From Bacteroidota bacterium (GTDB lineage Bacteria > Bacteroidota > Ignavibacteria > UBA10030 > SZUA-254), in NCBI GenBank assembly GCA_035495255.1, contig DATJGD010000012.1:34775-98774 (forward strand): 64,000 bases of DNA, written 5' to 3'. Below the pieces are notes generated by a model. That model searched no databases. It was not told the DNA's origin and saw only the letters and a list, made by a program, of their open reading frames with translations. This document shows positions 2,164-45,194 of this stretch, piece after piece; position 1 is the first letter of the stretch; each line of letters opens with the position of its first letter. The position numbers and the translations under genes are program-made.

Positions 2164-3380
2164 TGAAGAACTGGTTAGCCGAACATATCGATTTCCTGGT
2201 GTTGTTTGTTGTCGGATGCCTTCTGACGATCGGCATCGTTTCGATCTACAGCGCGACGTACGATACCGGCTCGCGGGCATTCTTCCACAAACAGATGATC
2301 TTCGCGGGCATCGGGGCAATCTTCATGATCGTCATCATCGCGATGCCCTTCAGGACTCTTCAGCTCCTCTCGGTCGCGCTCTACGGAATTTCGATCATTA
2401 TGCTCGCGATGGTATTGATCGCCGGCAAAATCGTGGCAGGATCCAAGAGCTGGTTTGGCATCGGCGGCTTCGGCATGCAGCCTTCGGAGCTCGTGAAGAT
2501 CACGACGATCCTCGCGCTTGCCTCGTTCCTCTCTCAGCGCAACAGGAACCTCCGCCGATTCAAGGACATCGCCCTGGCGTTCGGCATAGCCCTCATACCG
2601 GTGTTTTTGATTTTGATGCAGCCGGACATGGGAACGGCGATCATTTACATGGGCACCCTTCTCCTGATACTCTATTGGGCCGGCGCCTCGAACTTTTTGC
2701 TGCTTACCCTTCTTGCGCCCGGCGCGGCGGCTCTCGCATCCCTTATAAGCACGACGGCATTTATTATCGTTATAGCCCTGACGTTAATTATTCTCTTTGT
2801 GCTGCGGGAAAACAGGCTCCTTGCGGCGATCACGTTTTCTCTCACCGTGCTCGTCGGTGCGTCGACGACGTTTATTTTTAACAAGCTCGCGCCGCACCAG
2901 CAAAAACGCATCCTGACGTTTCTCTATCCCGACGCCGACCCGCTGGGAGCGGGTTACAACGTCGCTCAATCTAAGATCGCGATCGGTTCCGGAGGGGTCT
3001 TTGGAAAAGGGTTTCTCCATGGGACGCAGACACAGTTGAATTTTCTTCCGGCGCAGTGGACCGACTTTATTTATTGCGTACCGAGCGAAGAGTTTGGCTT
3101 TCTTGGCGCGTTTCTCATACTGCTGCTGCTGACGATTCTTTTGCTCAGGGGGGTGAAGATCGCGTCGATGGTCAAGAGCCGCTACGCGAGCATCGTGGTC
3201 ATCGGCATCGTCTCGACGCTCGCCGTTCACACGACGATCAACATCGGCATGTCGATGGGAATGCTTCCCGTCATCGGCGTCCCGCTTCCATTTTTGAGTT
3301 ACGGCGGCTCGAATCTCATCACCAACATGATCATGGTCGGCCTGCTCCTTCACATGTACGCCAACAGAAAAGAGTACTAG
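2163..3380 (+). CDS. rodA: SEDS-family peptidoglycan glycosyltransferase RodA
   Basis: Start chosen at MKNWLAEHIDFLVLFVV..., overlapping the mrdA stop. Polytopic membrane protein whose C-terminal end (LPFLSYGGSNLITNMIMVGLLLHMYANRKEY) is SEDS-like (FtsW/RodA). The upstream extension in the ORF track (from 2067) is rejected. Confidence 0.9.
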   Translation: MKNWLAEHIDFLVLFVVGCLLTIGIVSIYSATYDTGSRAFFHKQMIFAGIGAIFMIVIIAMPFRTLQLLSVALYGISIIMLAMVLIAGKIVAGSKSWFGIGGFGMQPSELVKITTILALASFLSQRNRNLRRFKDIALAFGIALIPVFLILMQPDMGTAIIYMGTLLLILYWAGASNFLLLTLLAPGAAALASLISTTAFIIVIALTLIILFVLRENRLLAAITFSLTVLVGASTTFIFNKLAPHQQKRILTFLYPDADPLGAGYNVAQSKIAIGSGGVFGKGFLHGTQTQLNFLPAQWTDFIYCVPSEEFGFLGAFLILLLLTILLLRGVKIASMVKSRYASIVVIGIVSTLAVHTTINIGMSMGMLPVIGVPLPFLSYGGSNLITNMIMVGLLLHMYANRKEY

Positions 3381-6551: not shown

Positions 6552-8630
6552 ATGAAATCAAGAAACTTGGCTGCAATTCTCTTTTGTTTGCTGCTTGTCG
6601 CTCCGTGTTCCTCCCTCCTCGCGCAAACGAAGCGCCCCATCGAGCTGGAAGACATGTTCCATATTAAGCGCGTCACCGATCCGCAGCTTTCTCCTGACGG
6701 AAAATGGGTCGCGTATGTCGTTACCGTCGTCGATAAGGCGGCAAACCGGACAAACAGCGATATCTGGATCGTGTCATCAAACGGCGGAGCCCCGCGTCAG
6801 CTTACAAATTCTCCCCGCCACGACCGGCATCCGCGCTGGTCACCCGACGGCAAGTCGATTCTCTTTGAATCGAACCGTAACGGCGCGTTTCAGTTGTATG
6901 TCGCACCCAGCGAAGGGGGCGATCCGCGGCAGCTGACGACGATTTCTACCGAAGCGAACTCGGGCGTCTGGTCACCCGACGGCAAATCGGTCGCGTTTGT
7001 CTCAGGCGTGTTTGCTGAATTCTCCGATAAGCCGTTTCAGGAAAGCGACGCATTAAATAAGAAAAAACAGGATGACCGCGACAACAGCAAAGTAAAGGCG
7101 CGTGTATTTACACAATTGCTGTATCGACACTGGGACAGCTGGGTAGACGACAAACGACAACACATCTTCGTTGTCCCGTCTGCGGGCGGTGAGCCGAAAG
7201 ATGTAACGCCCGGAGAGAATGACGCGCAGCCGACCTCTTCGACGTTTTCCGCCGGCGATGAATTCGACTTCTCACCCGACAGCAGGGAGATCGCATTTAC
7301 ATGCCCTCCCACCCCCACGCGCGAACAGGCATGGAGCACCAACCACGATATTTTCACCGTGAATCTTTCAACCGGAGAGCGAAAACAGCTTACCACTAAT
7401 CCGGCGGCCGACGGATTTCCCCGATACTCTCCGAACGGCAAGTACGTTGCATACCGCGCGCAATCGAAGCCAGGCTTCGAGGCAGACCGATGGCAGTTGA
7501 TGCTGTACGATCGCGAAACGGGGACAACGAGAAGTTTGTCGGAAGATTTTGATTCTAATGTGGAGGCCGTGGCCTGGAGCAATGACAGCAAGAAACTGTA
7601 CTTCGACGCGGAAGAGAAAGGGAATAAACCCCTGTGGTCCACTTCCTTAAGAAATAATGAAATGAACAAGCTTGTCGAGGCGGGCGTCAATGGCGACATT
7701 AGCTGTTCCCCCGGGGGGAAATTACTGGTGTATTCTCACCAATCGTTCACCCATCCGGTTGAGATCTATACCGCGGCCCTCGATGGAAAGAGCCAGAAGC
7801 AGTTAACACATGTCAATGATGAATTATTTTCCCAGCTTATGTTCACTGAGCCCGAATATGCTTGGTTCGACGGCGCGAATAAGACAAAGGTACAAATGTG
7901 GATCGCAAAACCGCCGACATTTACGGCTGGAAAAAAATATCCGCTCGTATTCTGGGTGCACGGCGGGCCGCAGACAGCGTTTCTTAACTCGTGGTCGTAC
8001 CGCTGGAACTCACAATTGTGGGCCGCACAGGGCTACGTCGTAACCCTCGCGAATCCCCGCGGCAGCACAGGCTTCGGACAGCAGTTCACCGATGAGATCA
8101 GCCACGATTGGGCCGGTAAAGTGTATGAGGATCTCATGAACGGCCTCAGTTATCTTGAATCGCAGCCGTACATCGATACAAGCAGAATGGCGGCGGCGGG
8201 CGCGTCGTTCGGCGGATATATGATGAACTGGTTCGAAGGACACACGGATAAGTTCAAGACAATCGTTTGCCATGACGGCGTATTCAATTTCTCGAGCATG
8301 TACGGCACCACCGAAGAAGTTTGGTTCGACGAATGGGAACACGGGAAGCCGTGGGAAAACCCGGGCGGGGATAAAGATTCTCCGAACCTGTATGCAAAGA
8401 ATTTCAAGACACCGATGCTGATCATCCACAGCGAGCTCGATTACCGCGTCCCGCTGAACGAAGGACAGCAGCTCTTCACGACTCTGCAGCGGCAGGGGGT
8501 TCCCTCGAAGTTCCTGTATTTCCCGGACGAGGGACACTGGGTGCTGAAGCCCGGAAACAGCGAGCTGTGGCATAAGACGATTTTTGAATGGCTCGCCGGT
8601 TATTTGAAGCCGGAAGTGGCAGTGAAGTAA
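6552..8630 (+). CDS. secreted S9-family serine peptidase (TolB-like beta-propeller plus prolyl-oligopeptidase alpha/beta-hydrolase domain)
   Basis: Signal peptide MKSRNLAAILFCLLLVAPCSSLLAQ. Repeated SPDGK propeller blades. C-terminal GASFGGYM (GxSxGG nucleophile elbow) with D and H downstream. Start moved from 6519 to the Met that begins the signal peptide. Confidence 0.8.
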   Translation: MKSRNLAAILFCLLLVAPCSSLLAQTKRPIELEDMFHIKRVTDPQLSPDGKWVAYVVTVVDKAANRTNSDIWIVSSNGGAPRQLTNSPRHDRHPRWSPDGKSILFESNRNGAFQLYVAPSEGGDPRQLTTISTEANSGVWSPDGKSVAFVSGVFAEFSDKPFQESDALNKKKQDDRDNSKVKARVFTQLLYRHWDSWVDDKRQHIFVVPSAGGEPKDVTPGENDAQPTSSTFSAGDEFDFSPDSREIAFTCPPTPTREQAWSTNHDIFTVNLSTGERKQLTTNPAADGFPRYSPNGKYVAYRAQSKPGFEADRWQLMLYDRETGTTRSLSEDFDSNVEAVAWSNDSKKLYFDAEEKGNKPLWSTSLRNNEMNKLVEAGVNGDISCSPGGKLLVYSHQSFTHPVEIYTAALDGKSQKQLTHVNDELFSQLMFTEPEYAWFDGANKTKVQMWIAKPPTFTAGKKYPLVFWVHGGPQTAFLNSWSYRWNSQLWAAQGYVVTLANPRGSTGFGQQFTDEISHDWAGKVYEDLMNGLSYLESQPYIDTSRMAAAGASFGGYMMNWFEGHTDKFKTIVCHDGVFNFSSMYGTTEEVWFDEWEHGKPWENPGGDKDSPNLYAKNFKTPMLIIHSELDYRVPLNEGQQLFTTLQRQGVPSKFLYFPDEGHWVLKPGNSELWHKTIFEWLAGYLKPEVAVK

Positions 8631-8665
8631 GAAGTACCGTGAGCCACAGGCCGCTTACGTTTCTC

Positions 8666-9022
8666 ATGGCAGCGTTGTTGGTTGGTTGCACTTCCACGAA
8701 TACATTTACCCGTGAAGAGCTTATCGCCGACCAAAGCCATAGCATCGTCGTTCACACGTATGACGGCAGAGTCATCCGGTTTTCTAAAGGCGACTACAGG
8801 ATCAGCCGTGTCGATCCCGGAAAGCTCGCGGGGAATGGAAAGCTGGTAGTAAATGAGACCTCCGGATCCGCCAGAGATTGGGAGGGAGATCTCACGTTCG
8901 ATGAAATTAAATCAATTTCGTACTCCGAACCGACGATCTTCGGAGCTGCTTCGGCTGTGTTCTTTATCGGTCTCGGCGCGCTGATCATATTGCTGGTTGC
9001 GTATCCGCCAAAAATGCATTGA
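8666..9022 (+). CDS. hypothetical lipoprotein with a C-terminal TM helix
   Basis: MAALLVGC lipobox, a soluble ~90-aa domain and a C-terminal hydrophobic helix. Start placed after the stop of the upstream S9 gene (the ORF track starts at 8588, inside that gene). Confidence 0.5.
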   Translation: MAALLVGCTSTNTFTREELIADQSHSIVVHTYDGRVIRFSKGDYRISRVDPGKLAGNGKLVVNETSGSARDWEGDLTFDEIKSISYSEPTIFGAASAVFFIGLGALIILLVAYPPKMH

Positions 9023-9034
9023 TGGAACAGGAAA

Positions 9035-9856
9035 ATGACCTTCATCCAAAAACTTCGTAACATCCAGCGCAAAAATAATTCATTGGTCTGCATCGGCCTC
9101 GACACCGATGTGACAAAGGTCCCCGAGTCGTTGTACCGTTGGGGTGATCCGCAATTTGAGTTCAACCGCCGGATCATCGACGCCACCAAAGATCTGGTTT
9201 GCGCCTACAAGCTGAATATTTCATTCTACGAGTCGGTCGGCGAGCACGGATGGTACACGGTGCACCAGACGCTTGCGCGCATTCCCGAAGAAATCGTGAC
9301 CATCGGGGACGGCAAGCGCGGCGACATCCCGAGCTCGGCCGAACGCCAGGCCCATCTCCTCTGCAACGATTGGGAATTTTCCGGAACGACGGTAAACCCC
9401 TACATGGGAGGCGATTCCGTCGAACCGTTTACCAGGAGACCCGAACAGTGCGCGTTCGTTCTTGCTGTCACGTCGAACAAGGGATCGAAGGATTTTCAAC
9501 ACCTCAAGGTCAACGGCAAGCCATTGTACGAGCACGTAGTCCGTACCGCGAAGAAGTGGAACAAGAAAAAGAATATCGGTCTCGTGGTCGGAGCGACACG
9601 CCCGGCGGAGCTGAAGCGCGTGAGATCGCTTGCGCCGGAGATGCCTATTCTCATCCCGGGCATCGGCGCACAAAAAGGAGATCTGGCCTCGACGGTTCGC
9701 TACGGCTGCGACAAGAACGGAGAGCTCGCGATCATCAACATCGGGCGCGCAATTATCAACGCCTCGACCGGCGACGATTTTGCGGAGAGGGCACGGGAAG
9801 CTACGATCCGGTACCGAAATCAGATCAACGAAATCCGCGAGAAATACTTCCGCTAG
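9035..9856 (+). CDS. pyrF: orotidine-5'-phosphate decarboxylase (long type-2 form)
   Basis: 273 aa. VCIGLDTD..., DGKRGDI, and a C-terminal IINIGRAI motif typical of OMP decarboxylase. Confidence 0.85.
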   Translation: MTFIQKLRNIQRKNNSLVCIGLDTDVTKVPESLYRWGDPQFEFNRRIIDATKDLVCAYKLNISFYESVGEHGWYTVHQTLARIPEEIVTIGDGKRGDIPSSAERQAHLLCNDWEFSGTTVNPYMGGDSVEPFTRRPEQCAFVLAVTSNKGSKDFQHLKVNGKPLYEHVVRTAKKWNKKKNIGLVVGATRPAELKRVRSLAPEMPILIPGIGAQKGDLASTVRYGCDKNGELAIINIGRAIINASTGDDFAERAREATIRYRNQINEIREKYFR

Positions 9857-9938
9857 TCGAAACTTTCCGTCGCGGATTCTTGCCGCGGCAGCCACCTCTC
9901 TTTATTCAAACTAATTTTTTCCCTATATTCAGTATCTA

Positions 9939-11096
9939 ATGAATTTAGGAACGTCTGTGTCACGCTCTCAACGCTGCATCGGAATCCTCGGGGGAGGCCA
10001 GCTCGCGCGCATGTCCGCGCTCGCCGCTTACGAACTTGGATTCACGGTGGCGATCGTCGACAGGGATTACGGTTCTCCCGCAGGCAAATTGACTCACCAC
10101 GAGTTCGTCGGTTCGTTTGACGACGACGAACTTCTGCAGCGATTCTGCCAGGTGTCGGACGTTGTCACGCTCGAGAACGAGTTTGTCGATTACCACCGTC
10201 TCGAACTGATCGAGAAAATGAAGAAGACGGTCTTCCCCTCGCCGAAAACCATTTCGCTGATCCAGGATAAGCTCCAGCAGAAAACCATACTGAGGAAAAA
10301 GGGAATACCGGTCGCCGACTTTCTTGAAGTCGGCAGCGCCAGCAATCTTCTTCCCATTATCCGCAAGCTGTCCATTCCGTTTGTCCTGAAATCGCGAAAG
10401 ATGGGATATGACGGGTATGGGAATGCCCTGGTTTCAAATAAAGTCGAGTTTGACGAAGCATACGGGACCCTCACCTCGAGGCATGCGAACCTTCTCGCAG
10501 AGAAGTTCATCGATTTTCAGATGGAGCTCGCGGTGATGGTCGCGCGCACTGCCAAGGAGATCCGCGTCTACCCGCTCGTCCAGACCATTCAGCGCAATCA
10601 TATCTGCCATACAGTCATCGCTCCCGCCCAGGTTGAGCCGCGTGTCCTCGCCGACGCGCAGGAAATCGCCGTCGAGGCGGTCAAAGCCGTCCAGGGATTC
10701 GGGCTGTTCGGTGTCGAATTCTTTCTCGTGAAAAACAACAAACTCCTTGTCAATGAAATGGCGCCGCGGCCGCACAATTCGGGCCATTACACGATCGAGA
10801 CATGCGTGACGTCGCAGTTCGAAAACCACGTTCGCGCAGTCCTGGGATTACCGCTCGGCTCGACCGAAATGGTTTGCCGGCATGCCGTGATGGTGAACTT
10901 ACTCGGTTCGAGAAAGCCCTCTTCAGGAATGAAAAACTACAACACCGCGCTCCGGCATCCGAACGCGCACCTTCACATCTACGGCAAGAACGAGTCCAGG
11001 GCCGGAAGAAAGATGGGACACATTACCCTCACGGGCGACTCGCTTCCGCCGCTCATACAACAGTCCAAAAAGCTCGAATCAAAAATTCTCATATGA
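9939..11096 (+). CDS. purK: N5-carboxyaminoimidazole ribonucleotide synthase
   Basis: 385 aa ATP-grasp. [13 protein letters not shown]-terminus and ...[13 protein letters not shown]. Overlaps purE by ATGA. Confidence 0.9.
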
Positions 11097-11591: not shown

Positions 11592-14500
11592 TTATTGATC
11601 GACCTTCTCCTTCTCCAGCTGTTCGTAGTACTTCCGGATAAGTTCTTCGTAATCTTTTGAATATTTGCCTTCCCGGATCTTCAGCATCTCTTCGCGGAGC
11701 CTGTTCTTCCCCTCCTGCGTCGTGAGGTCGATATCGCCGGGGCTCAGGTGCGGATATGTTTTTCCGGCTTCGGCTTTTCTTCGTTTTTCAAAATCCTTTT
11801 CACGCGCCGAGCGTGAAGCGTCAAGGAGCCGGGAAAGAATGCGGTCCTGCTTTTCTATTGTTTGCGGATTCACTTCTCCCTGGTTGAGGTCGCCGACAAT
11901 TTCCTGCATGTCGTGCTGTACTCTGTCGAGATCTCCGAGGAGCTTGCTGAAATCGCCTGTATTCTTTGCTTCTTCGGACAAATCCTGCAGGGATTTTTGA
12001 ACCGTAGACTGCTGCTGCGCGAGGCGCTGGTATGCCGCCTGTTGCTGGGTCGACATCCCCTGTCCCTCGCTGCCGCCTTGGCCCATGGCTTGTTGGGTCC
12101 CGCTGTTAATGCCTTGCTGCTGGCCGGCCATCTGGCCCAGGCGTCCGAGAAGGCCCGACATTCCGCTTCCGCCTTTACCGCCCTGCGACATCGCGTTGAT
12201 CGCCGACTGCATCATTGAGGCGGCGCGGTTGAGCGCGCCCATCGATTCGCCCTGCTTCTGGGACGTGCCGTTGGGATTCCGCGTTTCCATATTTTGCATC
12301 GCATCCTGCATCCCCTTTTGCGCGTTGCCCAGTTCCCTGCTCATCTCGGGGCTCACGGCAAAGGTCTTCTTTGAAAGGTCTGCCATGGCGTTTGAAACTT
12401 TATCGAGGTCGCTCATGACCTCGTTCTGATTTTCCGCGCTCTGCCGGAAGCTCGGCGAATTCGGATCAAGATCCTTCGAGGTATTCTTCAACGCTTCTTC
12501 ATCCTTGGAAAGCTGGAGTACGTTCTGCAGCTGCTTCTTCATTTGATTGAGGACCTGCTTCGTCTGTTCGTCCTGCATCTGTTTCTGAACATCCGTCAGC
12601 TCCTGCTCCATTTCCCCGAGGTCTTTCTCCGACTCCTCCTGATCCTTCTGAGCCTCCTGCATGTTCCCGCTTTTCATTTGCTGCGACGCGCTGTTCATCT
12701 TCTTGCCCGTCTGCTTGTCTTTCATCGACTGCTCGGCCTTCGACATCTGCTCAAGCGGCATTTCCTTGGGAAACTCCTCCATCTTGTCCTTGAGCGCCGA
12801 CGTTTCTTTTTGCATCGATCCCATTTGTTTTTCGAGATCGTCCTGCTTCTTTGAAAGCTCATCCTGCTTCTTCTGATCGGAAGACTTGGACTGCGCCGTC
12901 TGCTGTTTCAAATCCTGCTGCTGCTTCTGCATCTCGTCGGCGCGCTTGACGAGCTCGTCGAGTTTCTGCTCGATCGCGATCCTCTTTAAAAGCTCGACAG
13001 TCCGCTCGAGGTTTTTCCGGAATTGATCTTCCGAGCCTTTGAGCTGTTCCATCGCGCGCTGCATCTCCTCGGGCGAAAGCTGTTTCATGGACTCCTGCAG
13101 CTTCTTGAGGGCCTGCTGAAGATCTGGGGATTTCAACTGGTCAAGAAGTTTCTGCAATTCCTGGAACTTTTCCATCGTCTGATTGGAGAGCAGCTTGTTG
13201 TCGTCCATCTTTTTCACCGCCTCGTCCATCTTTTGGGCGGTCTGGTCGAGGTTTTTCTTTAATTCGTCGTACCGCTTGAGAAGCTCTTCGGCTTTCTTTT
13301 GCTGCTGCCAGTCGGCTTTGTTCCGGTTCTTCTGGAGGTCGCGATGAAGCGACTCTATGTTCTTCTTCAATTCCTGCGCTTCCTTCGTCGCGTTCTCCAT
13401 CGACTCCATCGATTGCTGCTGCGACTGGCTTACGTCGCTGAACACTTCATCGAGTGAGGGAAGGCGGATCAGGTATGTTTCGCTGCGGCCTGATTTCGGC
13501 CCGTTGATATTGTCGTTATCAAACACTTCGGCATAGTACGCGACCGCGTCTTCCGGCACGAGACGGAGGGAGGTCAGATCCCAATGGTAGGATACGTCGT
13601 TCGCCTGCAGAGTTTTTGACGGGAGAGGAACCTCGACAAATGAATATTCTTCGCGAACCTGCTCGTAGCGTGATTGTGCGAGGCGGTACGCAATGCGCAG
13701 CTTCGAGAACCCGAAATCATCCTTCAGGCGCATGAACAGATCAACCGACTTTTGTTCCGTCAGATCGATATTTTTTCCCGGCGTGATGATCTCGACGGTC
13801 GGGTTTTCGTCATGAAGCAGTTTGACGCTGTATTCGACCGGATCGATGTTCGATAATCCGCTGAGATCCTTCAGTTCGAAATGATACGTGAGTTCTTTTT
13901 TCACGCTGGCGGTCCCGGTCGCGGCGCCATTTGAGATTGTCAAGGGGACCGTCGTGTGATCGCTCCACATCACAAGAGCGGAAGAGAGAGGCTTACTCGC
14001 ATCAAGCCGTACGCTGAGCCGGGATCCCGGATAGGCAGTAACGTCTCCCTGATTGTCTTCCAGTGTCCGCGACGGGATTTTTGTGTAGCCGGGAGACTCG
14101 ACCTGAATCCGGAACGACCGGATAAGAGGGCGGTCGAGAACGCTGATTTTATAGTTGTCGCTCTTGACGTCTTCGGCGGAGGCGTAATACTCCGTGGTCG
14201 TCCTGATGTTTGAAATCTCGGTTTCAAAGAGCCCCGCTGATTTGGGAACGAGATTGAGGGTCTCAAAATCTACCTGCCCCTCCTGCCGGGTCGACAGCGA
14301 AATCTGCCGCGGAGACTTGCCGCGGACACGAACGGTCACCGGCACGGATTGGCCGCGAACAGCGTCAATGTTGCCGGGTTCGACGGTGAGCTGAAGCGGC
14401 ATCGACGCCGCGAACGATGTTCCAAAATTGATGACTCTATAGAATGAATCGAACATCCCGAGCTGGGGAATCACGAAGACAAGCAGAATCAGCGCTGCGG

Positions 14501-15011
14501 CGTACAGAACGGTCTTCCGGATCTTCCGGACGCGCATGTCGCTGACGGCGTCGGTAAAGTTGAGGGGTTGCGCGTTTGTATATAAGTCGCTGAACGAAGC
14601 ATCGATGAGAGGCAGCGAATAGTGTCCGGTCAGCGCGTCTTTGTTCTCGTAGACCTGCATGGCATCGAGAAGGCGGTCCCGGACCTGAGGAAAATGTGAG
14701 CCTACTTTTTCCGCGAGAGCATGATGATCCTGCGATCTCGCCAACAGGGGCCGGACGAGGAGCCAGGCAGCCGCTGCTGCGACGACCGCGAGGGCGGCCG
14801 CGAAGAGGATCGTTCGCCCGATAACGCCGAAGGTGAAAACTTCTTCGAGCAGCGTCACGGCAAAGATCGCCGCAAACGCGATGAGCAGCGTCGCGAGCGT
14901 TCCATAGAGCACGCGCAACCGAAGCTCCCGGGTTCCGACGGCCTCAAGCCGGCGGAGGATCTCATTATAGGATGTTGATACGCCTGACATTATTAATGGG
15001 TCAACGCCCAT
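11592..15011 (-). CDS. giant membrane-anchored coiled-coil / Gln-Gly-rich low-complexity protein (architecture resembles the TIGR02302/DUF4175 family)
   Basis: 1139 aa. Three N-terminal TM helices, a ~400-aa beta-rich domain, a ~450-aa K/E/Q/M-rich coiled coil, a Gly/Gln-rich tract (GGKGGSGMSGLLGRLGQMAGQQQG...) and a conserved-looking C-terminus. An alternative start at M8 (14990) would abut the upstream gene's stop. The family name is from memory of that architecture, not a search. Confidence 0.75.
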   Translation of the reverse strand: MGVDPLIMSGVSTSYNEILRRLEAVGTRELRLRVLYGTLATLLIAFAAIFAVTLLEEVFTFGVIGRTILFAAALAVVAAAAAWLLVRPLLARSQDHHALAEKVGSHFPQVRDRLLDAMQVYENKDALTGHYSLPLIDASFSDLYTNAQPLNFTDAVSDMRVRKIRKTVLYAAALILLVFVIPQLGMFDSFYRVINFGTSFAASMPLQLTVEPGNIDAVRGQSVPVTVRVRGKSPRQISLSTRQEGQVDFETLNLVPKSAGLFETEISNIRTTTEYYASAEDVKSDNYKISVLDRPLIRSFRIQVESPGYTKIPSRTLEDNQGDVTAYPGSRLSVRLDASKPLSSALVMWSDHTTVPLTISNGAATGTASVKKELTYHFELKDLSGLSNIDPVEYSVKLLHDENPTVEIITPGKNIDLTEQKSVDLFMRLKDDFGFSKLRIAYRLAQSRYEQVREEYSFVEVPLPSKTLQANDVSYHWDLTSLRLVPEDAVAYYAEVFDNDNINGPKSGRSETYLIRLPSLDEVFSDVSQSQQQSMESMENATKEAQELKKNIESLHRDLQKNRNKADWQQQKKAEELLKRYDELKKNLDQTAQKMDEAVKKMDDNKLLSNQTMEKFQELQKLLDQLKSPDLQQALKKLQESMKQLSPEEMQRAMEQLKGSEDQFRKNLERTVELLKRIAIEQKLDELVKRADEMQKQQQDLKQQTAQSKSSDQKKQDELSKKQDDLEKQMGSMQKETSALKDKMEEFPKEMPLEQMSKAEQSMKDKQTGKKMNSASQQMKSGNMQEAQKDQEESEKDLGEMEQELTDVQKQMQDEQTKQVLNQMKKQLQNVLQLSKDEEALKNTSKDLDPNSPSFRQSAENQNEVMSDLDKVSNAMADLSKKTFAVSPEMSRELGNAQKGMQDAMQNMETRNPNGTSQKQGESMGALNRAASMMQSAINAMSQGGKGGSGMSGLLGRLGQMAGQQQGINSGTQQAMGQGGSEGQGMSTQQQAAYQRLAQQQSTVQKSLQDLSEEAKNTGDFSKLLGDLDRVQHDMQEIVGDLNQGEVNPQTIEKQDRILSRLLDASRSAREKDFEKRRKAEAGKTYPHLSPGDIDLTTQEGKNRLREEMLKIREGKYSKDYEELIRKYYEQLEKEKVDQ

Positions 15012-15697
15012 ACCACGATATTTGTTCCAAACTGAAGCGCCTCCTGGCGTTTCTCCGGTGAATCGCCATGCACTTCAGGGTCGTTCCAGGCGTCGCTGGG
15101 GTTCGACTCAAATGTATAATAGAGGACAAGCCTCCCGTTGTGAAAAAGCCCGAAGCCCTGCGGCGGCTTGCCGTCGTGCTCGTGCGTCTTTGGGGGGCCT
15201 TTCGGAAATTCAAACTGGCAGTGATAGAGGCCGTACGAGAACGGCAGCTCGACAAGATTCTGCGACGGGAAAATCTTCTTTACTTCGCGGCGGAACGCTT
15301 TGTCCATCCCGTAATCATCGTCGGCATACATGAACCCGCCGTTTTCAAGATATGCCCGGAGCCGCTGAATCTCGACGTCGGTGAACGAGATGTTGCCGTG
15401 GCCCGTCAAAAAGATAAAGGGATAGGAAAAAAACTTGTCGCTCATGATATCGACGAACTCGTACACCGGCTCAACCTGGACGAGCGTGTTCTGCCGGACA
15501 AAGTTCAGAAGGTTTACTTCACCCTGGGGATCATTGTACCAGTCTCCGCCCCCGGAGTATTTCAGGCGGGCAATCTTCAGTGAGCTGTTGACACCGGTCC
15601 CCTGGGGAAATGCAGCATAACAGATCAAAACCGTCAGCACAAAAGCGAACATAGTCCTCATCATACTATAAAAAGGTAACCAAGATAGGGAAAACAT
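14993..15697 (-). CDS. exported hypothetical protein (DUF4159-like), translationally coupled to the giant gene downstream
   Basis: 234 aa. Signal-peptide-like MMRTMFAFVLTVLICYAAFPQ. Its stop overlaps or abuts the start of the 1139-aa gene. The family assignment is tentative. Confidence 0.6.
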   Translation of the reverse strand: MFSLSWLPFYSMMRTMFAFVLTVLICYAAFPQGTGVNSSLKIARLKYSGGGDWYNDPQGEVNLLNFVRQNTLVQVEPVYEFVDIMSDKFFSYPFIFLTGHGNISFTDVEIQRLRAYLENGGFMYADDDYGMDKAFRREVKKIFPSQNLVELPFSYGLYHCQFEFPKGPPKTHEHDGKPPQGFGLFHNGRLVLYYTFESNPSDAWNDPEVHGDSPEKRQEALQFGTNIVVWALTH

Positions 15698-15808
15698 GCA
15701 ACCGGCGCCCTACCCCGTACGTTGAAAATCTGGCGATAATTGGTTATACTATGATAATACTCTACAAAACCCGTCTGTAATACTCGCAAACGAAAGGATT
15801 TTACGAAA

Positions 15809-17815
15809 ATGAGTGCTGTACACAGGGTGCTCGTCACCCTTTTCTTGTCTATGATGATCTATGCCTGCGCCCCAAAAACGTCGGACATTGTGGTTCTCGA
15901 AGTGGGCCCGTCGAAGGTCACCATGAGCGAATATGAGAGTTTCTTCACACGCAACAGCGGCGGCTGGGACGTCGCCAAGCAAAGCTCGATGGAGGAACGG
16001 GAAAGATTTCTCGATCTTCTCACAAACTACAAGCTGAAGCTCCGGGACGCGTACGACAAGAATCTTATCAATGATTCCGACATCGTTCGGGAGCTGCGGG
16101 AATACAGAACAAGCCTTGCCTCGACATATATTCTCGACCGCGAACTCACCGAGCCGGGCGTGAAGCTTCTGTACGAACGTCGCAAGGAGTACATTCGCCC
16201 GCAGCACATTCTCCTGTCGTTAAAACCGGATGCCTCCCCCGAAGAGACACTGAAAGCCTACTCGAAGGCGATGGAGATTATCCGCCTCGCGGCGTCGGGC
16301 CAGAGCTTTGATTCTCTCACGATGCAGTATTCGAGCGATCCCTCGACGAAGACGAATCGCGGAGACCTTTATTATATTACGACCGGAACGCTCGTGAAGC
16401 CGTTTGAAGACGCGATGTACAGCATTCCAAAAGGAAAGATCGGCAGCACGCCTGCCCGTTCATCGTTCGGCTATCATATCATCAAGATCCTCGACCGTGA
16501 GCCGACGCGCATCGTCAAGGCGCGTCATATCATGTCCCGTTTCAAATCGCAAACTCCCGACTCTTCAGAAGCCTCCGAAGCTCTTGCGCGCGTTCAGGGC
16601 TATGCGGACAGCCTAAAGAAGGGATGGGACTTCGCCAAGCTCGCGACGAAGGTTTCAGAGGATCCGGGAAGCGCGCCGAATGGCGGCGACCTTGGATGGT
16701 TTGAGCGGCGCCGGTGGGTTCTCCCGTTCGACGAAGCGGTCTTCAAACTTCGCCTCGGCGAAACGTCTTCGATCGTCCGGACTCCGTTCGGCTACCACAT
16801 TATCCGCATCGACAGTCAGAAATCGATTCCACCGTTTACGGACGCTGCGTTCAGAGATGAACTCAAGAAGATGTATCAGCAGCACCGCTACAGCGAAGAC
16901 TTCGCTGACTATGTCGCAAAAATGAAAACAGAATACGCGTTCGAGTTTAATGAGGAGGCGTTTAACGCTCTTGTGGCGCGCCTCGACTCCACAAAACTCA
17001 TCGGCGACAGCGCGTGGGACGACGGCATTCCTGCGGATGTCCGCGCTCTTCCTCTGCTGAAGATCAATCACAGATCGATCTCCGTCGATACGGTCGTCGC
17101 AGCCCTCGGCAACCGGGCGGAGTTCCGCAACACGTCCCTGCGGCGCGCGGACCTCAGGCCGCGCATTGACCGCATCGCCGAGTCGCTGCTTCTCGAAGCC
17201 AAGTCGGGGAAACTCGAGGCCCAGTATCCCGAGTTCGCCTCGTTAATGAAGGAGTATGACGACGGCGTTGTGCTGTATAAGGCGGAGCAAATGGAAGTGT
17301 GGAACAGAAACGTCGTTTCCGATTCGTCGCTGCGAAGCTACTACGAAGAGCACAAGGCCAAATTCATGTTCCCCGAAAAAGTCAACATCGCCGAAATCTT
17401 TGTCTCGACCGACACGATGGCCGCCAAGCTGTACGATTCGCTCTCCCGCGGCGCCGATTTTGCGACACTTGCGAAGCGGCATTCGGAAGATGTCGATCTC
17501 GGATCAAAGGGCGGCGAGCGGGGATTTCTTCCCGTCGACACCGATTCGCTCACAAAACTGGGAACGACGCTTCAGGCCGGCGAATACACTGAGCCGAAAC
17601 AGGTCGAAGAGGGCGGATTCGTCATCGTGAAATTGCTCGGGCGCCAGGCAGCCCGCCAGAAGACGTTCGACGAAGCGGGAGCCGAGTTATCAAACTCCTT
17701 CCAGGACACGAATTCAAAGCTCCTTGAACAGCAGTGGCTCGATCGTGTAAAAGGCCGCTATCCGGTGAAGCAATACAAGGAACGGCTGGTCGACGCCTTC
17801 AAAAAGGCACAATAA
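15809..17815 (+). CDS. periplasmic peptidyl-prolyl cis-trans isomerase, SurA/PpiD-like lipoprotein with two parvulin domains
   Basis: 668 aa. N-terminal signal/lipobox (..MMIYAC). Two PpiC/parvulin cores (SFGYHIIKILD and TPFGYHIIRIDS) separated by chaperone-like helical regions. Confidence 0.8.
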   Translation: MSAVHRVLVTLFLSMMIYACAPKTSDIVVLEVGPSKVTMSEYESFFTRNSGGWDVAKQSSMEERERFLDLLTNYKLKLRDAYDKNLINDSDIVRELREYRTSLASTYILDRELTEPGVKLLYERRKEYIRPQHILLSLKPDASPEETLKAYSKAMEIIRLAASGQSFDSLTMQYSSDPSTKTNRGDLYYITTGTLVKPFEDAMYSIPKGKIGSTPARSSFGYHIIKILDREPTRIVKARHIMSRFKSQTPDSSEASEALARVQGYADSLKKGWDFAKLATKVSEDPGSAPNGGDLGWFERRRWVLPFDEAVFKLRLGETSSIVRTPFGYHIIRIDSQKSIPPFTDAAFRDELKKMYQQHRYSEDFADYVAKMKTEYAFEFNEEAFNALVARLDSTKLIGDSAWDDGIPADVRALPLLKINHRSISVDTVVAALGNRAEFRNTSLRRADLRPRIDRIAESLLLEAKSGKLEAQYPEFASLMKEYDDGVVLYKAEQMEVWNRNVVSDSSLRSYYEEHKAKFMFPEKVNIAEIFVSTDTMAAKLYDSLSRGADFATLAKRHSEDVDLGSKGGERGFLPVDTDSLTKLGTTLQAGEYTEPKQVEEGGFVIVKLLGRQAARQKTFDEAGAELSNSFQDTNSKLLEQQWLDRVKGRYPVKQYKERLVDAFKKAQ

Positions 17816-17873: not shown

Positions 17874-18734
17874 GTGCCGGCCCCAGCGTACTATAATAGT
17901 ATATGGCTCGCGGCACTCCTGCTTGTCGCCGCGTGCCGCGAAGAGAAACACGCGGACATCATTGCCCGCGTCGGAACCGTCGAGCTTACCCGGGCCGAGG
18001 CCTACGCGCATATCGATACGTCGGCATCCAGCATTGATCTCCAGCTTCAGGCGTACACGACATCCTGGATCAATTCGGAGTTGCTTCACCAGGAAGCAGA
18101 GCGCCAGAAGATCGAAGGATCGGACGAAGCCGAACGAAAGCTCTCGGACGCCCGGAAGCAGATGGTGAACCAGATGTTTCTCGATCACTATATGAAGTCT
18201 GATTCCGGAACGATTCACGAGCAGGAGCTCCACAATTATTATGACGCGCATGAGGCAGAATTTATCGCGCACGATCTCATGCTCAAACTGCGCATCGCGG
18301 TGTTCACTTCGCGGGATCGCGCGAGCGCATTCACAACAGGATTTATGAAAACGTCGAACTGGGACTCGGTCCTTGCTGAACCTTCCATCGCTTCGGGCCT
18401 GGTCCGCTCCTCGCTCCCCCAGTATTACTCTCAGCATACGCTGTTCCCGCCGGAGTTGTGGAGAATCGCGACAACGCTCTCGATCGACGACATCTCATTC
18501 CCGGTAAAAATATCCTCCGGATATGCCATCGTCCAGCCGATCGGAGCCGCGCGGGAGGGAAAACCGCTGCCGTTCGAACTGGTCCGCGATGAAATATATC
18601 AGCGGCTCCTCATCGAGCACCGCCGCACCAGGTACGACGCGCTGTTAGGAACCCTTCGACAGCGGTATGCTGTTGAAGTATTCACGGGTTCATTCCGGCA
18701 AGCAGATACGACACATCTTCAAACTCATGAATAA
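17874..18734 (+). CDS. SurA-N-terminal-domain chaperone-like lipoprotein with a degenerate parvulin-like C-terminus
   Basis: 286 aa. Lipobox LLLVAAC. Helical SurA_N-like region. C-terminal ..SSGYAIVQPI resembles a decayed parvulin core. Its stop overlaps the surA start. Confidence 0.6.
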   Translation: MPAPAYYNSIWLAALLLVAACREEKHADIIARVGTVELTRAEAYAHIDTSASSIDLQLQAYTTSWINSELLHQEAERQKIEGSDEAERKLSDARKQMVNQMFLDHYMKSDSGTIHEQELHNYYDAHEAEFIAHDLMLKLRIAVFTSRDRASAFTTGFMKTSNWDSVLAEPSIASGLVRSSLPQYYSQHTLFPPELWRIATTLSIDDISFPVKISSGYAIVQPIGAAREGKPLPFELVRDEIYQRLLIEHRRTRYDALLGTLRQRYAVEVFTGSFRQADTTHLQTHE

Positions 18735-20013
18735 ACAAACTCTCATTGCAGTCATCTGCCTCGCTGCTCTCCGTGTTCCGGACCGTGCGGCAGGCCAGTC
18801 GACCGTCGTCGACCGCATCGTCGCGGTGGTCGGGAGAGAATGCATTCTCCTCTCCGACGTCACCGCGCAGATCGATTTTTACACGCTCAACAATCACGTC
18901 GATCCTTCGACGCCGGGGCTGCGGGACCAGGTCCTCCAGGCAATGATCGACAAGAAACTCATGCTCTCGAAGGCCGCCGAAGACACGACGATCAACGTCC
19001 GCGAAGAAGACGTGACGAATCAGCTCGATGCCCTTGTCGCTCAACGCATACAGCAGGTCGGCTCCGAAAAGCGGCTTGAAGAGCTGTACGGAATGCCGAT
19101 CAGCAAGATGAAGCGCGAGTTCCGCGACGAGACGAGAAAAGAGCTCATGGTGCAGATGCTGCAGCAAAACAAATTCGGCGATGTTCAGGTCAGCCGCCGC
19201 GAGGTCGAGGAGTTTTACGCCACGTATAAGGACAGTTTGCCGAAAGTGCCGGAAGAACTGGAACTTTACCACATCTTCCGCCTGCCGAAGGTCAGCGAAT
19301 CCTCACGCGCGGCAACGATGGCAAAGGCGCAGAAGATTATCGATTCGATCAAGGCTGGAGGCGATTTTGCCGATTTCGCGCGCCGGTATTCTGAGGACAA
19401 GGGTACCGCGCAGTTCGGAGGCGACCTGGGGTTTGCCCGCCGCGGACAATTTCTCAGGGAATTCGAGGAAGCTGTTTTCTCCCTCAAGGAAAACCAGATC
19501 GCAAACATTGTTGAAACTCCGCTGGGACTTCACATCATGCAGCTGCTTGAACGGCGCGGCGAGTCCGTTCACGCCCGGCACATTCTTTTCAAAGTAGAGC
19601 GCACCGACGCCGATGCCGAATCGACGAAGGCATTTCTCCGTTCGCTGAAGGACAGCGTTCTCCGCGGGGGCGATTTTTCCGATCTCGCCAAACGGTATTC
19701 GGAAGACAAAGAATCGGGCCCGCAGGGGGGCCTCCTGGGAAGCTTTTCAACCTCGCAGTTTGACCAGTCGCTGCTCGATGTCGTGAAGGACATGAAGGAG
19801 GGCGATGTCAGCAATCCGGCGGAAGTGAACTACGGAACATCCAAGGGTTATCACATTATTTATCTCAAGAAACGAATTCCGGAACATACGATCAATATCA
19901 CCGACGACTGGAAGCGGCTCGAAGCGCTCGCCGTCAACGCGAAGCGAAACCAGCTCTACCTCGACTGGCTCAAGCAGCTGCGGTCGGAAATTTACTGGGA
20001 AACACGACTATAA
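18727..20013 (+). CDS. surA: periplasmic chaperone / PPIase SurA (two parvulin domains)
   Basis: Start at MNKQTLIAVICLAAL (signal peptide). SurA_N region followed by two parvulin domains (..TPLGLHIMQLLE.. and ..TSKGYHIIYLKK..). Confidence 0.8.
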   Translation: MNKQTLIAVICLAALRVPDRAAGQSTVVDRIVAVVGRECILLSDVTAQIDFYTLNNHVDPSTPGLRDQVLQAMIDKKLMLSKAAEDTTINVREEDVTNQLDALVAQRIQQVGSEKRLEELYGMPISKMKREFRDETRKELMVQMLQQNKFGDVQVSRREVEEFYATYKDSLPKVPEELELYHIFRLPKVSESSRAATMAKAQKIIDSIKAGGDFADFARRYSEDKGTAQFGGDLGFARRGQFLREFEEAVFSLKENQIANIVETPLGLHIMQLLERRGESVHARHILFKVERTDADAESTKAFLRSLKDSVLRGGDFSDLAKRYSEDKESGPQGGLLGSFSTSQFDQSLLDVVKDMKEGDVSNPAEVNYGTSKGYHIIYLKKRIPEHTINITDDWKRLEALAVNAKRNQLYLDWLKQLRSEIYWETRL

Positions 20014-20025: not shown

Positions 20026-21018
20026 ATGGAAACCACAACCACTAACGACGTCGAATCCGTACAAGCTCTCAAAGCAAGCTTCGAGACGATCAAGAAAGAA
20101 ATCTCGAAGGTCATCGTCGGACAAGAGCCGATCATCGAGCAGTTGCTCATCTCGCTTCTTGCGCGTGGCCATTGCCTGCTGGTCGGAGTCCCCGGGCTCG
20201 CGAAAACGCTCCTGATCAAAACGCTCGCGGAGGTCATGGATCTCAAGTTCAGCAGAATCCAGTTCACACCTGACCTCATGCCGTCGGACATTACGGGGAC
20301 CGAAATCCTCGAAGACAACCGCACGACCGGAGAGAAATCGTTCAAGTTTATCCGCGGCCCTGTCTTCGCGAATATCCTGCTTGCCGACGAAATTAACAGG
20401 ACTCCACCGAAGACGCAGTCCGCGCTGCTCGAAGCCATGCAGGAACATCATGTCACCGCCGCCGGGCAGAAGTATACGCTCGAAGAGCCATTTTTTGTTC
20501 TCGCGACGCAGAACCCTATCGAACAGGAAGGAACGTATCCCCTTCCCGAGGCGCAGCTCGACCGTTTCATGTTCAACCTCTGGCTCGACTATCCGAGCGA
20601 GCGGGAAGAGCTGGAGATCGTGAAATCCACGACGAGCATGTACGTCCCGGAATTACGGCACGTCCTTCGCAAAGAAGAGATCCTGCACTATCAGAACCTG
20701 GTCCGAAGAGTCCCGGTTGCCGACAACGTCATCGCGTTCGCGGTGAACCTCGTCGGACGGACACGTCCCAAGTCGAACATGGCGCCGAAGTTCATCGGCG
20801 ACTGGCTCAGCTGGGGTGCGGGGCCCCGGGCGTCTCAATTCCTGATTCTTGGCGCGAAGACGCGCGCAATTCTTGAAGGCCGGCATACTCCCGACATTGA
20901 CGACGTGCGGCATGTCGTCGGCCCCGTCCTTCGTCATCGCATTGTGCCGAACTTTAACGCGGAAGCTGACGGGGTTACCGCCATGCAGATCATCGATAAA
21001 TTATTAGAAAATGATTGA
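20026..21018 (+). CDS. MoxR-family AAA+ ATPase
   Basis: 330 aa. Walker A GVPGLAKT, Walker B LLADEINR, sensor ...ATQNP..., typical MoxR length. 12 nt downstream of surA; overlaps the next gene. Confidence 0.9.
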   Translation: METTTTNDVESVQALKASFETIKKEISKVIVGQEPIIEQLLISLLARGHCLLVGVPGLAKTLLIKTLAEVMDLKFSRIQFTPDLMPSDITGTEILEDNRTTGEKSFKFIRGPVFANILLADEINRTPPKTQSALLEAMQEHHVTAAGQKYTLEEPFFVLATQNPIEQEGTYPLPEAQLDRFMFNLWLDYPSEREELEIVKSTTSMYVPELRHVLRKEEILHYQNLVRRVPVADNVIAFAVNLVGRTRPKSNMAPKFIGDWLSWGAGPRASQFLILGAKTRAILEGRHTPDIDDVRHVVGPVLRHRIVPNFNAEADGVTAMQIIDKLLEND

Positions 21019-23107
21019 GAGGCCCTCAATGATCAAACGAATACTGTTTTGGTCACTTTTCACGGTGGCTACGATCGCGCAGCTTGCCCCTGCGCAAACC
21101 GCGCGCAAGTATTGGGTGTACTTTACCGATAAAGGCCCCAGGTATCCTGCAACCGGAACGCTTTCAAAGAGTTCTCCGGGATATGAACGAGCCGTCAGCA
21201 GCATCACTCCGGCCGCACTCGCGCGGCGGGCGAAAGTACTTCCCGCGGGCGACGTTGTCGATGCGGGCGATCTTCCCCTCTACCAGCCCTATCTTCAGCG
21301 GATCGGACAAACAGGGGCAATTCGGCAGCGGGAATCGCGATGGTTGAATGCCGCAAGTTTCATCGCGACCGCCGATCAGCTTGCGATCATCTCAGGCTAT
21401 TCGTTCGTGAAGAGCGTAACATCTGTCAGGACGATGACAGTGCGAAGCAATTATCAACAGGAATTCCCGCCTGCGGTGCCCTTCGCCAAAACGGTCTCGC
21501 TCGATTACGGGCCTTCCGCAACTCAGAACCAGGTCATCAACACTCCGTCGCTCCACGAGCTCGGGATTACCGGACGCGGAGTCATCATCGGAATGCTCGA
21601 TACCGGTTTTCGCTGGAGAGCGCATGAGTCGCTGCAGTCGCGGTATGTCATCGCCGAACACGATTTTATTCAGAATGACGACACGACGGCAAACCAGGCC
21701 GGCGATTCGTTCAATCAGGATCAGCACGGGACCCTGACGTTTTCGACCATCGGCGGCTACATGCCGGGAAAGCTTATCGGGCCGGCGTTTAACGCGGGAT
21801 TTATTCTGGCAAAAACAGAGTACGTCCCTACCGAAACGAAAATAGAAGAAGACAATTGGGCGAACGCCATTGAGTGGATGGAAGGGCTCGGCGTAGATGT
21901 CGCGAGCAGCTCCCTCGGGTATGATAATTTTGATCCGCAGGGATCGCTTGATTCCAGCGATTACCGCTGGGTCGACGGCGACTTTAACGGCAGAACTTCC
22001 GTTACCGCGATCGCCGCGATCCATGCTGCGAGGCTCGGAGTAGTGGTTTGTAATGCGATGGGAAACGAAGGCAACGGGGATGGCGTCACCGCAACGATGC
22101 TGACGCCGGCCGATGCTGACAGCATTGTTTCAGTTGGAGCCGTGAATTTCTCGCGGGTGCTGGCCGGCTTCAGCTCGACCGGCCCCACGAATGACGGACG
22201 GACCAAGCCCGATGTCGTTGCTCCGGGGGTGAGCGTCTACTGTGCTTCCACCTCGGGGCCCGCTTCATATTTCAGCGTGAGCGGGACTTCGCTCGCGACT
22301 CCGCTGACCGGAGGAACTTCCGCGCTTATTCTCTCGGCACGGCCGGAGCTCACACCGATCCAGGTCCGCAATGCATTACATAACACCGCGATCCCGATTC
22401 TCGACAGCATCTATTATCCGTCGAGCCCGAATAATTTTACCGGTTGGGGGCTCATCGACGCGTTTAACGCGGCCCTTTCCTTCGGTCCGATCTTCAGCAA
22501 CCAGCCGCTGGTTGATTCCGTGAGCTCGGTAAGCATCGATATCGCGTCGAAGTTCGGGATTCGCCCGTCCGCCGTGTACTTTCATTACGCGATCGGCGGG
22601 AGCGCTGTCTACGATTCCATTCCTATGACGCTCGATTCTTCGATGTTCTTCCCGACCTCCGGCAGATACCGCGTCGCGGTTCCGCCGCAGGCAATCGGGA
22701 CTCTCGTTCACTTTTACATGACTGCGGCCGACAGCGCGTCGCTTTCGTATCAGAGTCCGGCTCCCGTGTTGAACAACGTCTGGCAGCTGAACTACGGAAC
22801 AACCGGCGTGAAGACCTCGTCTCAGTATCCGGCGGAGTACGCACTCCTTCAAAACTATCCCAATCCGTTTAATCCGTCGACCCGCATTTCCTACGATCTG
22901 CCGAAGCGGGAACACGTCCGCGTTCAGGTGTTTGACGTGCTCGGCCGGCTCATGGCAACTCTCGTCGACGAAGTGCAGGACGCGGGGAGCGGCGCATCGC
23001 GTTCTCCCGTCGTGTTCAACGCGGCCAACATGCCGAGCGGAATTTACTTTTACAGGATTACGACTCCATCGTTTACCTCGACGAAGAAGATGATGCTTGT
23101 TCGTTGA
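21011..23107 (+). CDS. secreted S8 subtilisin-like serine peptidase with a T9SS C-terminal sorting domain
   Basis: Signal peptide (MIKRILFWSLFTVATIAQLAPAQ), catalytic D (GMLDTGF), H (DQHGT) and S (SGTSLATP). The C-terminal ~80 aa (YPNPFNPSTRISYDL...IYFYRITT...KKMMLVR) is a Por/T9SS type-A CTD. Overlaps both neighbours. Confidence 0.85.
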   Translation: MIERPSMIKRILFWSLFTVATIAQLAPAQTARKYWVYFTDKGPRYPATGTLSKSSPGYERAVSSITPAALARRAKVLPAGDVVDAGDLPLYQPYLQRIGQTGAIRQRESRWLNAASFIATADQLAIISGYSFVKSVTSVRTMTVRSNYQQEFPPAVPFAKTVSLDYGPSATQNQVINTPSLHELGITGRGVIIGMLDTGFRWRAHESLQSRYVIAEHDFIQNDDTTANQAGDSFNQDQHGTLTFSTIGGYMPGKLIGPAFNAGFILAKTEYVPTETKIEEDNWANAIEWMEGLGVDVASSSLGYDNFDPQGSLDSSDYRWVDGDFNGRTSVTAIAAIHAARLGVVVCNAMGNEGNGDGVTATMLTPADADSIVSVGAVNFSRVLAGFSSTGPTNDGRTKPDVVAPGVSVYCASTSGPASYFSVSGTSLATPLTGGTSALILSARPELTPIQVRNALHNTAIPILDSIYYPSSPNNFTGWGLIDAFNAALSFGPIFSNQPLVDSVSSVSIDIASKFGIRPSAVYFHYAIGGSAVYDSIPMTLDSSMFFPTSGRYRVAVPPQAIGTLVHFYMTAADSASLSYQSPAPVLNNVWQLNYGTTGVKTSSQYPAEYALLQNYPNPFNPSTRISYDLPKREHVRVQVFDVLGRLMATLVDEVQDAGSGASRSPVVFNAANMPSGIYFYRITTPSFTSTKKMMLVR

Positions 23108-25366: not shown

Positions 25367-25444
25367 GGCACGCCAAGGAGGAGAAACAATAGTTTTATGT
25401 AACGGGCGAACTTCCCCGTTCTTTCCTATCCGCACACTACCCTC

Positions 25445-44197: not shown

Positions 44198-44237
44198 TAT
44201 TTTTTCATTTCCTGATCTTCGACAAAATCCTTTAAAT

Positions 44238-44270
44238 CAAAAAAAATTCCACACCATTATTCCCCACTTT
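44238..44270 (-). promoter_or_regulatory. candidate MraZ operator: direct repeats GTGGGGA-N3-GTGGGGA (10-bp period) plus a degenerate third repeat, 40-75 bp upstream of mraZ
   Basis: The plus strand reads ttCCACACcattatTCCCCACtttTCCCCACcgg. On the mraZ strand this is GTGGGGaaaaGTGGGGaataatGGTGTGG. MraZ proteins are known to bind 10-bp-spaced GTGG[GT] direct repeats in their own promoter region. Confidence 0.5.
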
Positions 44271-44431
44271 TCCCCACCGGTGAAACTCCAATTTAGGGTT
44301 TTTTGCTTAAAAGTCAAGTGTTTTTTGCGTTTTGGAGGGAATTACTGGGCTTTTGTGAAGCCGAACAACAACTCTGAAGAAAAACGGCTAAAACGGGCTA
44401 TTTTCGAGGGTGCCTAAGGGCTCAAAATGGA

Positions 44432-45167: not shown

Positions 45168-45194
45168 TGAATCTGACGTATCGCCAATAAAGAA

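Follow-up and report, generated by a model that had tools for sequence, protein, structure and literature searches.

Why would the gene for a protease destined for the cell exterior be kept between the genes of a cytoplasmic AAA+ ATPase and of a membrane protein that might be its partner? The question is raised by a 64,000-nucleotide (nt) stretch of contig DATJGD010000012.1 (hereafter the window) from a Bacteroidota bacterium of the class Ignavibacteria. In this window a gene for an S8-family subtilase (S8), bearing a signal peptide and a type IX secretion system (T9SS) tail, lies between the gene of a MoxR-type ATPase and that of a membrane protein with a von Willebrand factor A (vWA) domain. 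This order had been proposed in a preliminary description of the sequence, and domain scans confirm it. Comparison with related loci leads us to favour, with a probability of roughly 0.5, a reading in which the S8 gene is an old, vertically inherited, active, useful but dispensable passenger of an Ignavibacteria envelope operon. 

The three genes do not stand alone. They form the 3′ half of a block of six closely spaced plus-strand genes at 15.8–25.3 kb, inferred from their spacing and a consensus scan to be one operon, in which VWA is our short name for the 723-amino-acid (aa) membrane protein with a divergent vWA domain:

15809..17815, plus strand: PPIase 1, a 668-aa parvulin-type peptidyl-prolyl isomerase (PPIase) with a lipoprotein-like signal (…MMIYAC) and matches to Rotamase_3, Rotamase and Rotamase_2
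17874..18734, plus strand: PPIase 2, ~286 aa, matching only Rotamase_2 in the domain scan, with the lipobox LLLVAAC; its position is conserved in relatives
18667..20013, plus strand: PPIase 3, a SurA-like periplasmic chaperone/PPIase with a signal peptide and SurA_N and Rotamase matches
20026..21018, plus strand: MoxR-type AAA+ ATPase, 330 aa, matching PF07726 and AAA_lid_2
21029..23107, plus strand: S8 subtilase pre-pro-enzyme, 692 aa, matching PF00082, its start taken from the identical NCBI protein P0121
23112..25283, plus strand: VWA, a 723-aa inner-membrane protein with a vWA domain, its start taken from the identical JGI protein P0001 and its architecture from a family profile and an AlphaFold2 model

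PPIase 1 heads the block in relatives too, and the true start of PPIase 3 is probably an internal ATG giving MNKQTLIAV….

Scanning a VWA profile against one genome per GTDB species returned 520 relatives. The best 80 loci, all from Ignavibacteria-type metagenome-assembled genomes (MAGs), were fetched and joined to four earlier loci, and the window's proteins were placed on each of these 84, to which the following counts refer. The order PPIases–MoxR–S8–VWA recurs in 38 loci, and MoxR is followed directly by VWA in 20 (spacers 12–278 nt). Six truncated loci carry S8–VWA, two (L070 and L077) have S8–VWA with MoxR 6–9 kb away, eight have other upstream genes at VWA and nine are too short to classify; S8–VWA without an adjacent MoxR is found in two loci, or in three if L035 is counted. 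Look-ups centred on S8 recovered the same six-gene block in three of three cases, and MoxR–S8–VWA is kept down to ~36% S8 identity. The flanks differ widely, with UbiA, DUF4159 or XdhC upstream and FtsZ, UvrA, a methyltransferase, an M23 peptidase or DAHP synthase downstream, and the conserved unit is therefore the block itself. The preliminary description had proposed asking whether the S8 insertion is conserved in relatives, and had named MoxR followed directly by the vWA gene, with the subtilase elsewhere, as the pattern that would speak for a neutral insertion. The loci compared give a split answer: the insertion holds in the 38 loci and the three look-ups, and the direct junction is seen in the 20 S8-less loci (18 in one deep clade, plus L016 and L062/L064). 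Judged from these sequences, the arrangement is conserved far beyond chance yet demonstrably optional.

A neighbour-joining tree of VWA proteins places 18 S8-less loci in that one deep clade and identifies L016, nested inside the window's clade, and L062/L064 as independent S8-less cases; the loci in which VWA has other upstream genes fall inside a third clade. No S8 remnants were detected by tblastn in the MoxR–VWA spacers of the S8-less loci L016, L062, L064, L048, L026 and L056 (all E > 0.03). Pairwise S8 distances correlate with VWA distances at r = 0.79, a value reached by none of 2,000 Mantel permutations, and the correlations involving MoxR lie at 0.60–0.66. Because S8 divergence tracks VWA divergence, the data point to a single ancient acquisition or ancestral presence of S8, after which the gene descended vertically and was repeatedly lost or relocated. 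A search of 1.84 billion representatives (5,941 clusters at E ≤ 1e-30) supplied no outgroup context with which to polarise gain against loss; the best 150 of the 5,941 clusters were all full-length, and those checked were Ignavibacteria-type.

The association of MoxR with VWA has limits of its own. The two genes are adjacent in 20 loci, have S8 between them in 38 and are unlinked in L053, L073, L080, L085 and L086. In the last two, which are Melioribacteraceae-type relatives (L085 8001–10130, L086 8001–10136), VWA is flanked by surE and a phosphoribosyltransferase gene and no MoxR or S8 gene lies within 8 kb, so that the MoxR–VWA linkage itself is lineage-specific. Three further loci have unusual reading frames. 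In L045 (6938–9985) the MoxR frame runs without a stop into the S8 open reading frame (ORF), and in L079 (8903–12088) it runs into the VWA ORF; both are long-read MAGs, and these run-on frames are probably assembly indels rather than true fusions. In L035 (4388–9998) a divergent S8 is split into a catalytic ORF (7091–8899) and a T9SS-tail ORF (8856–9998) directly 5′ of VWA; where MoxR would precede it, a TPR-CHAT protein is encoded. The T9SS-tailed proteins located 3′ of VWA in the S8-less loci L019, L038 and L056 are unrelated cargo (BNR/sortilin-like, GH26), and their presence there is probably due to chance.

As far as sequence and structural model allow, the subtilase itself looks in every respect like an active zymogen that is exported by way of Sec and the T9SS. 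It matches PF00082 with 135 bits, and its T9SS type-A C-terminal domain is recognized by PF18962 (34.3 bits, cut-off 27) and TIGR04183 (40 bits, cut-off 23). Its N-terminal signal peptide reads MIKRILFWSLFTVATIAQLAPA, with cleavage before QT. The AlphaFold2 model (predicted local distance difference test, pLDDT, 77) gives a layout of signal peptide (1–22), prodomain of ~110 residues (~26–132), catalytic domain (~160–485), beta-sandwich (~500–590) and type-A C-terminal domain (~605–692). The catalytic triad D191, H233 and S421 and the oxyanion asparagine N346 are conserved in 44–46 of 46 S8 orthologues, and nearly all of the 120 subtilase homologues among the matches listed carry the T9SS C-terminal domain. 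The nearest solved structures are generic subtilisins (~1e-21), and no close relative appeared among the PDB matches. Within the 64-kb window we found no genes for T9SS components.

How tightly the three genes are joined depends on the start codons. The overlaps of 8 nt and 11 nt given in the preliminary description are true of the longest ORFs, which begin at ATG 21011 and TTG 23097, but not of the starts supported by homologues. The identical NCBI protein P0121 is 692 aa long and sets the S8 start at ATG 21029, the identical JGI protein P0001 has 723 aa and sets that of VWA at ATG 23112, and the annotated genes of three relatives start at the corresponding codons. ATG 21029 is preceded by GAGAGG and yields a clean signal peptide (MIKRILFW…APA/QT). 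From these starts MoxR and S8 are separated by a 10-nt spacer that holds the GAGAGG motif, and S8 and VWA by 4 nt. The genes thus do not overlap, and what survives of the proposed translational coupling is that such tight spacers are compatible with it. The S8–VWA junction is the tightest among the relatives' loci: the distance from S8 stop to VWA start measures 3–12 nt in 30 of the 46 loci, and most members of the window's clade have exactly 4 nt. No Shine–Dalgarno motif is conserved at this junction across relatives, and spacing of this kind would fit coupling by termination and reinitiation.

On the 5′ side of the subtilase, the 330-aa MoxR protein matches PF07726 (AAA_3) with 216 bits (cut-off 27) and PF17863 (AAA_lid_2) with 54.7 bits, which places it among the MRP-type MoxR proteins; its AAA_3 score of 216 bits against 40 bits for bpMoxR marks it as the classical AAA_3 type. 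Relatives' MoxR proteins are 67–90% identical to it, and it has neither an export signal nor a convincing transmembrane segment.

The protein on the 3′ side had been called the vWA partner of MoxR, a label that claims too much. By sequence the 723-aa window protein is hard to recognize as vWA: taken alone, it has no Pfam or NCBIfam match at E ≤ 0.01. The vWA assignment draws on its complete metal-ion-dependent adhesion site (MIDAS), on its alpha/beta fold and on its homologues, 18 of 25 family members matching PF00092 (best E 8e-6). The MIDAS residues D84, S/T86, S88, T147 and D173 are retained without exception by all 75 relatives compared, and an AlphaFold2 model (pLDDT 81) shows an alpha/beta domain at 66–200. 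The full layout comprises transmembrane segments at 14–35 and 41–63, the vWA domain (66–200), an Ig-like domain (206–306), an alpha/beta domain resembling flavodoxin or OST48 (310–540), a second Ig-like domain (545–637) and a final transmembrane segment (699–719). The best PDB fold match of the model is the luminal OST48 subunit, and the vWA- and Ig-containing receptor ANTXR2 is also among the matches; with their low TM-scores, these likenesses are only suggestive. The flavodoxin/GldG assignment of 310–540 is likewise a tentative one, made from the fold match and the pattern of secondary structure, and the same domain shows no relationship to the neighbouring DUF4159 protein (hhalign probability 0.4%).

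Across 25 homologues, the loop between the first two transmembrane segments averages 2.6 K+R and 0 D+E, and the C-terminal tail 3.0 K+R and 0 D+E. With positive charge at these two places, the positive-inside rule predicts a periplasmic location for the ~630-residue central, vWA-bearing part of VWA. Each of the three PPIases carries a signal peptide or a lipobox; given these, the exported S8 and the periplasm-facing VWA, every product of the block except MoxR would be extracytoplasmic. We found no residue or indel that separates the VWA proteins of S8-containing loci from those of S8-lacking loci, the MIDAS being invariant in all, and the function of VWA therefore does not depend on S8.

The immediate surroundings of the block add two membrane-protein genes that diverge from it and two candidate signals at its ends:

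11592–15011, minus strand: DUF4175 membrane protein, 1,139 aa (domain scan)
14993–15697, minus strand: DUF4159 membrane protein, 234 aa (domain scan)
15722..15750, plus strand: candidate operon promoter 5′ of PPIase 1, sigma-70-like TTGAAA-17-TATACT, a weak hit (10 of 12 matches) of the consensus scan
25401..25420, plus strand: terminator-like hairpin 3′ of the VWA gene, convergent with ftsZ, from the consensus scan

The same scan detected no strong promoter or terminator sites inside the block, whose 3′ neighbour is the convergent ftsZ end of the dcw cluster. DUF4175 homologues directly adjoin the VWA gene in L062, L064, L071 and L072, and the DUF4159 and DUF4175 proteins are likely to be further parts of the same MoxR/Bat-like envelope system.

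Among described loci, those of the Bat type (moxR-DUF58-batA-batB-batC-batD-batE, including Borrelia BB0170–BB0176) come closest. There, as here, a MoxR protein of the AAA_3 type heads genes for vWA membrane proteins, and the DUF4159 and DUF4175 neighbours can be counted as part of the likeness. For BB0173, a Bat-like vWA membrane protein encoded beside a MoxR gene, a periplasmic vWA domain has been shown experimentally (PMC5700661), the same orientation that is predicted for VWA. The VWA family profile also weakly matches two vWA structures of BatA/BatB, 4jdu and 3ibs (E ~0.01). Unlike in Bat loci, DUF58, TPR (BatC) and BatD/E genes are missing from the block and from the other ORFs scanned in the window. 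DUF58 does not follow moxR, a single 723-aa protein of vWA–Ig–alpha/beta–Ig architecture replaces BatA plus BatB, three PPIase genes head the block and a T9SS subtilase is inserted, so that this is not a Bat aerotolerance operon in the strict sense. An archaeal neighbourhood (arCOG01314) of MoxR, a secreted vWA protein and a membrane-anchored GldG-like (flavodoxin-fold) protein, predicted to form a complex for secretion or remodelling (Makarova et al. 2015, PMC5898192), likewise combines a cytoplasmic MoxR with extracytoplasmic vWA, Ig-like and flavodoxin-like modules, which are fused in one protein here; it differs in lineage and sequence families and has no protease. In canonical MoxR–vWA pairs (RavA–ViaA, CbbQ–CbbO, NorQ–NorD, CoxD–CoxE) the two proteins share a compartment, whereas the vWA part is predicted to be periplasmic in the present case.

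Two further comparisons concern the protease. Riemerella SspA and the Bergeyella KP-43 peptidases, which are T9SS subtilisin-like proteases, have the same succession of signal peptide, prodomain, S8 domain, beta-sandwich and type-A C-terminal domain, but none of these enzymes has been described as holding a set place within a MoxR operon. In the limited literature searched (MoxR with subtilisin, type IX secretion or Ignavibacteria), we found no description of a subtilase fixed inside a MoxR/vWA operon. The MoxR–vWA ternary conflict systems (Kaur, Burroughs, Iyer and Aravind 2020, PMC7159879) share MoxR and vWA genes with a peptidase nearby. We rejected membership in this group: VMAP, iSTAND, FtsH and beta-propeller candidates for the third component are missing here, MoxR is of the AAA_3 rather than the bpMoxR type, the vWA domain is predicted to be periplasmic, the context is housekeeping (dcw cluster) and no PADLOC model fits. 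A defence system in the wider sense was discarded as well, PADLOC giving a generic match for the subtilase only and none for MoxR or VWA, again among housekeeping neighbours.

How, then, might the subtilase have come to stay? In the reading that we favour, its gene would have been embedded long ago in an operon of three parvulin/SurA-type periplasmic PPIases, MoxR and the membrane vWA protein. The pro-enzyme would be made alongside periplasmic folding catalysts and the periplasm-facing VWA, its translation probably coupled to that of VWA through the 4-nt stop-to-start spacer, and would fold in the periplasm before leaving through the T9SS. The gain may lie in regulating the protease together with the factors that fold and assemble the envelope and in making them in stoichiometric amounts, perhaps with a functional link to VWA as well, rather than in MoxR acting on the protease; MoxR would serve a membrane system made up of VWA and probably DUF4175/DUF4159, as in Bat-like loci. 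A precedent comes from Lactococcus PrtP/PrtM and Bacillus PrsA, in which an exported S8 pro-enzyme is likewise encoded with parvulin PPIases carrying lipoprotein signals, and exported subtilases depend on the adjacent parvulin lipoproteins (PMC8623714). By analogy, the need of subtilases for parvulin-type foldases is a plausible reason for the co-expression of S8 with three PPIases, with the differences that the present organism is diderm, that export is predicted to use the T9SS and that there are three PPIases. The dispensability of the subtilase is seen in an entire clade and in scattered lineages that lack it, their VWA proteins showing no detectable change.

Several points weigh against this picture. 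The same PPIase genes, all three preceding MoxR, occur in blocks that have no S8, and they are therefore general factors and not dedicated maturases, which would be present only with the protease. S8 stays beside VWA where MoxR and the PPIases lie elsewhere (L070, L077), which hints at a tie more specific than simple co-regulation. A gain of S8 after the split of the S8-less clade and a loss within that clade are both compatible with the data, and operon status is itself read from gene spacing and the consensus scan.

The involvement of MoxR in activating or exporting the protease, suggested in the preliminary description, finds no support, and we consider it very improbable that this cytoplasmic chaperone assists the subtilase at all. 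MoxR proteins are maturation chaperones for specific clients, which speaks for the idea, as does the adjacency of the two genes, across a 10-nt spacer, in 38 loci. Examples of MoxR clients are given in PMC7159879. But S8 has a Sec signal peptide and MoxR no export signal, which puts the two proteins on opposite sides of the inner membrane, so that the folded enzyme would never meet MoxR. MoxR also holds the same place in the 20 S8-less loci, and after rearrangement S8 goes with VWA and not with MoxR (L070, L077). Subtilases, moreover, usually fold with the help of their own prodomain, and a prodomain is present here. What these rearranged loci hint at instead is a specific partnership of S8 with VWA, in which the periplasmic part of VWA would bind the pro-enzyme as a holdase, an anchor or a point of hand-off to the T9SS, or S8 would process VWA or its ligands, with MoxR powering VWA from the cytoplasmic side. 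This possibility, which we rate well below the passenger reading, draws on the tightest and best-conserved junction of the locus, on the persistence of the pair away from MoxR and the position of S8 5′ of VWA also in L035, on the distance correlation of 0.79 against 0.60–0.66, on the predicted periplasmic exposure of both proteins and on the intact MIDAS. Set against it are the unchanged sequence signature of VWA where S8 is absent, the 20 loci with no S8 at that position together with the Melioribacteraceae-type relatives that have VWA alone, and the expected final locations, which are the exterior of the outer membrane for S8, to judge by its T9SS tail, and the inner membrane for the anchored VWA; the higher correlation may merely reflect the low divergence of MoxR. 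A more elaborate and still less probable version holds that the MIDAS of VWA captures the exported pro-enzyme, or other T9SS cargo, at the inner membrane and that MoxR remodels VWA for its release or hand-over. If true, T9SS cargo would pass through a periplasmic staging step that has not been described before, and S8 would be the first client to be ascribed to any Bat-like MoxR/vWA system.

At the other extreme, the subtilase may be a neutral hitch-hiker: a common T9SS protease gene that landed between two operon genes, persists solely because it is seldom removed cleanly and has a function unrelated to those of its neighbours. In Bacteroidota, subtilases are a plentiful and unremarkable kind of T9SS cargo; one deep clade lacks S8, and the gene has been lost or moved several times; VWA has no S8-dependent signature, and other, unrelated T9SS cargo genes adjoin VWA in some S8-less loci. 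Such a gene would hardly be expected to keep its position, across S8 divergence down to ~36% identity, in a block whose flanks both turn over, to maintain very short spacers or to conserve its catalytic residues (44–46 of 46); and the S8-less spacers examined hold no S8 remnants, which means that deletions, if any, were clean. We regard neutrality as an unlikely account, on a level with the S8–VWA partnership. Overall, the evidence points to co-regulation rather than to a client relationship.

Elsewhere in the window, a gene for a LonB/LonC-like AAA+ protease (AAA_32, LonB lid, LonC helical and Lon_C matches; 3447–5894, plus strand) adjoins a PBP2/RodA pair (346–3380). A stretch of ~1.1 kb with lower G+C content (44200–45280; 0.49 versus 0.55), 5′ of mraZ, contains short ORFs only and has no Rfam or tRNA match, the Rfam and tRNA scans of the whole window having given no matches. 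A fusion of an Nramp metal transporter with a C-terminal universal stress protein domain (57611–59473, minus strand) adjoins the gene of a DtxR/FeoA-type iron-dependent repressor (59475–60131).

The locus represents a lineage-specific variation on an established type of MoxR locus and, as it stands, a comparative-genomics result rather than a mechanistic surprise. Widespread as they are, Bat-like MoxR/vWA envelope loci still lack an assigned function. An identifiable secreted enzyme that has long been kept in such a locus offers a possible handle on what Bat-like systems act on, and the relatives without S8 provide natural 'knock-out' comparators.

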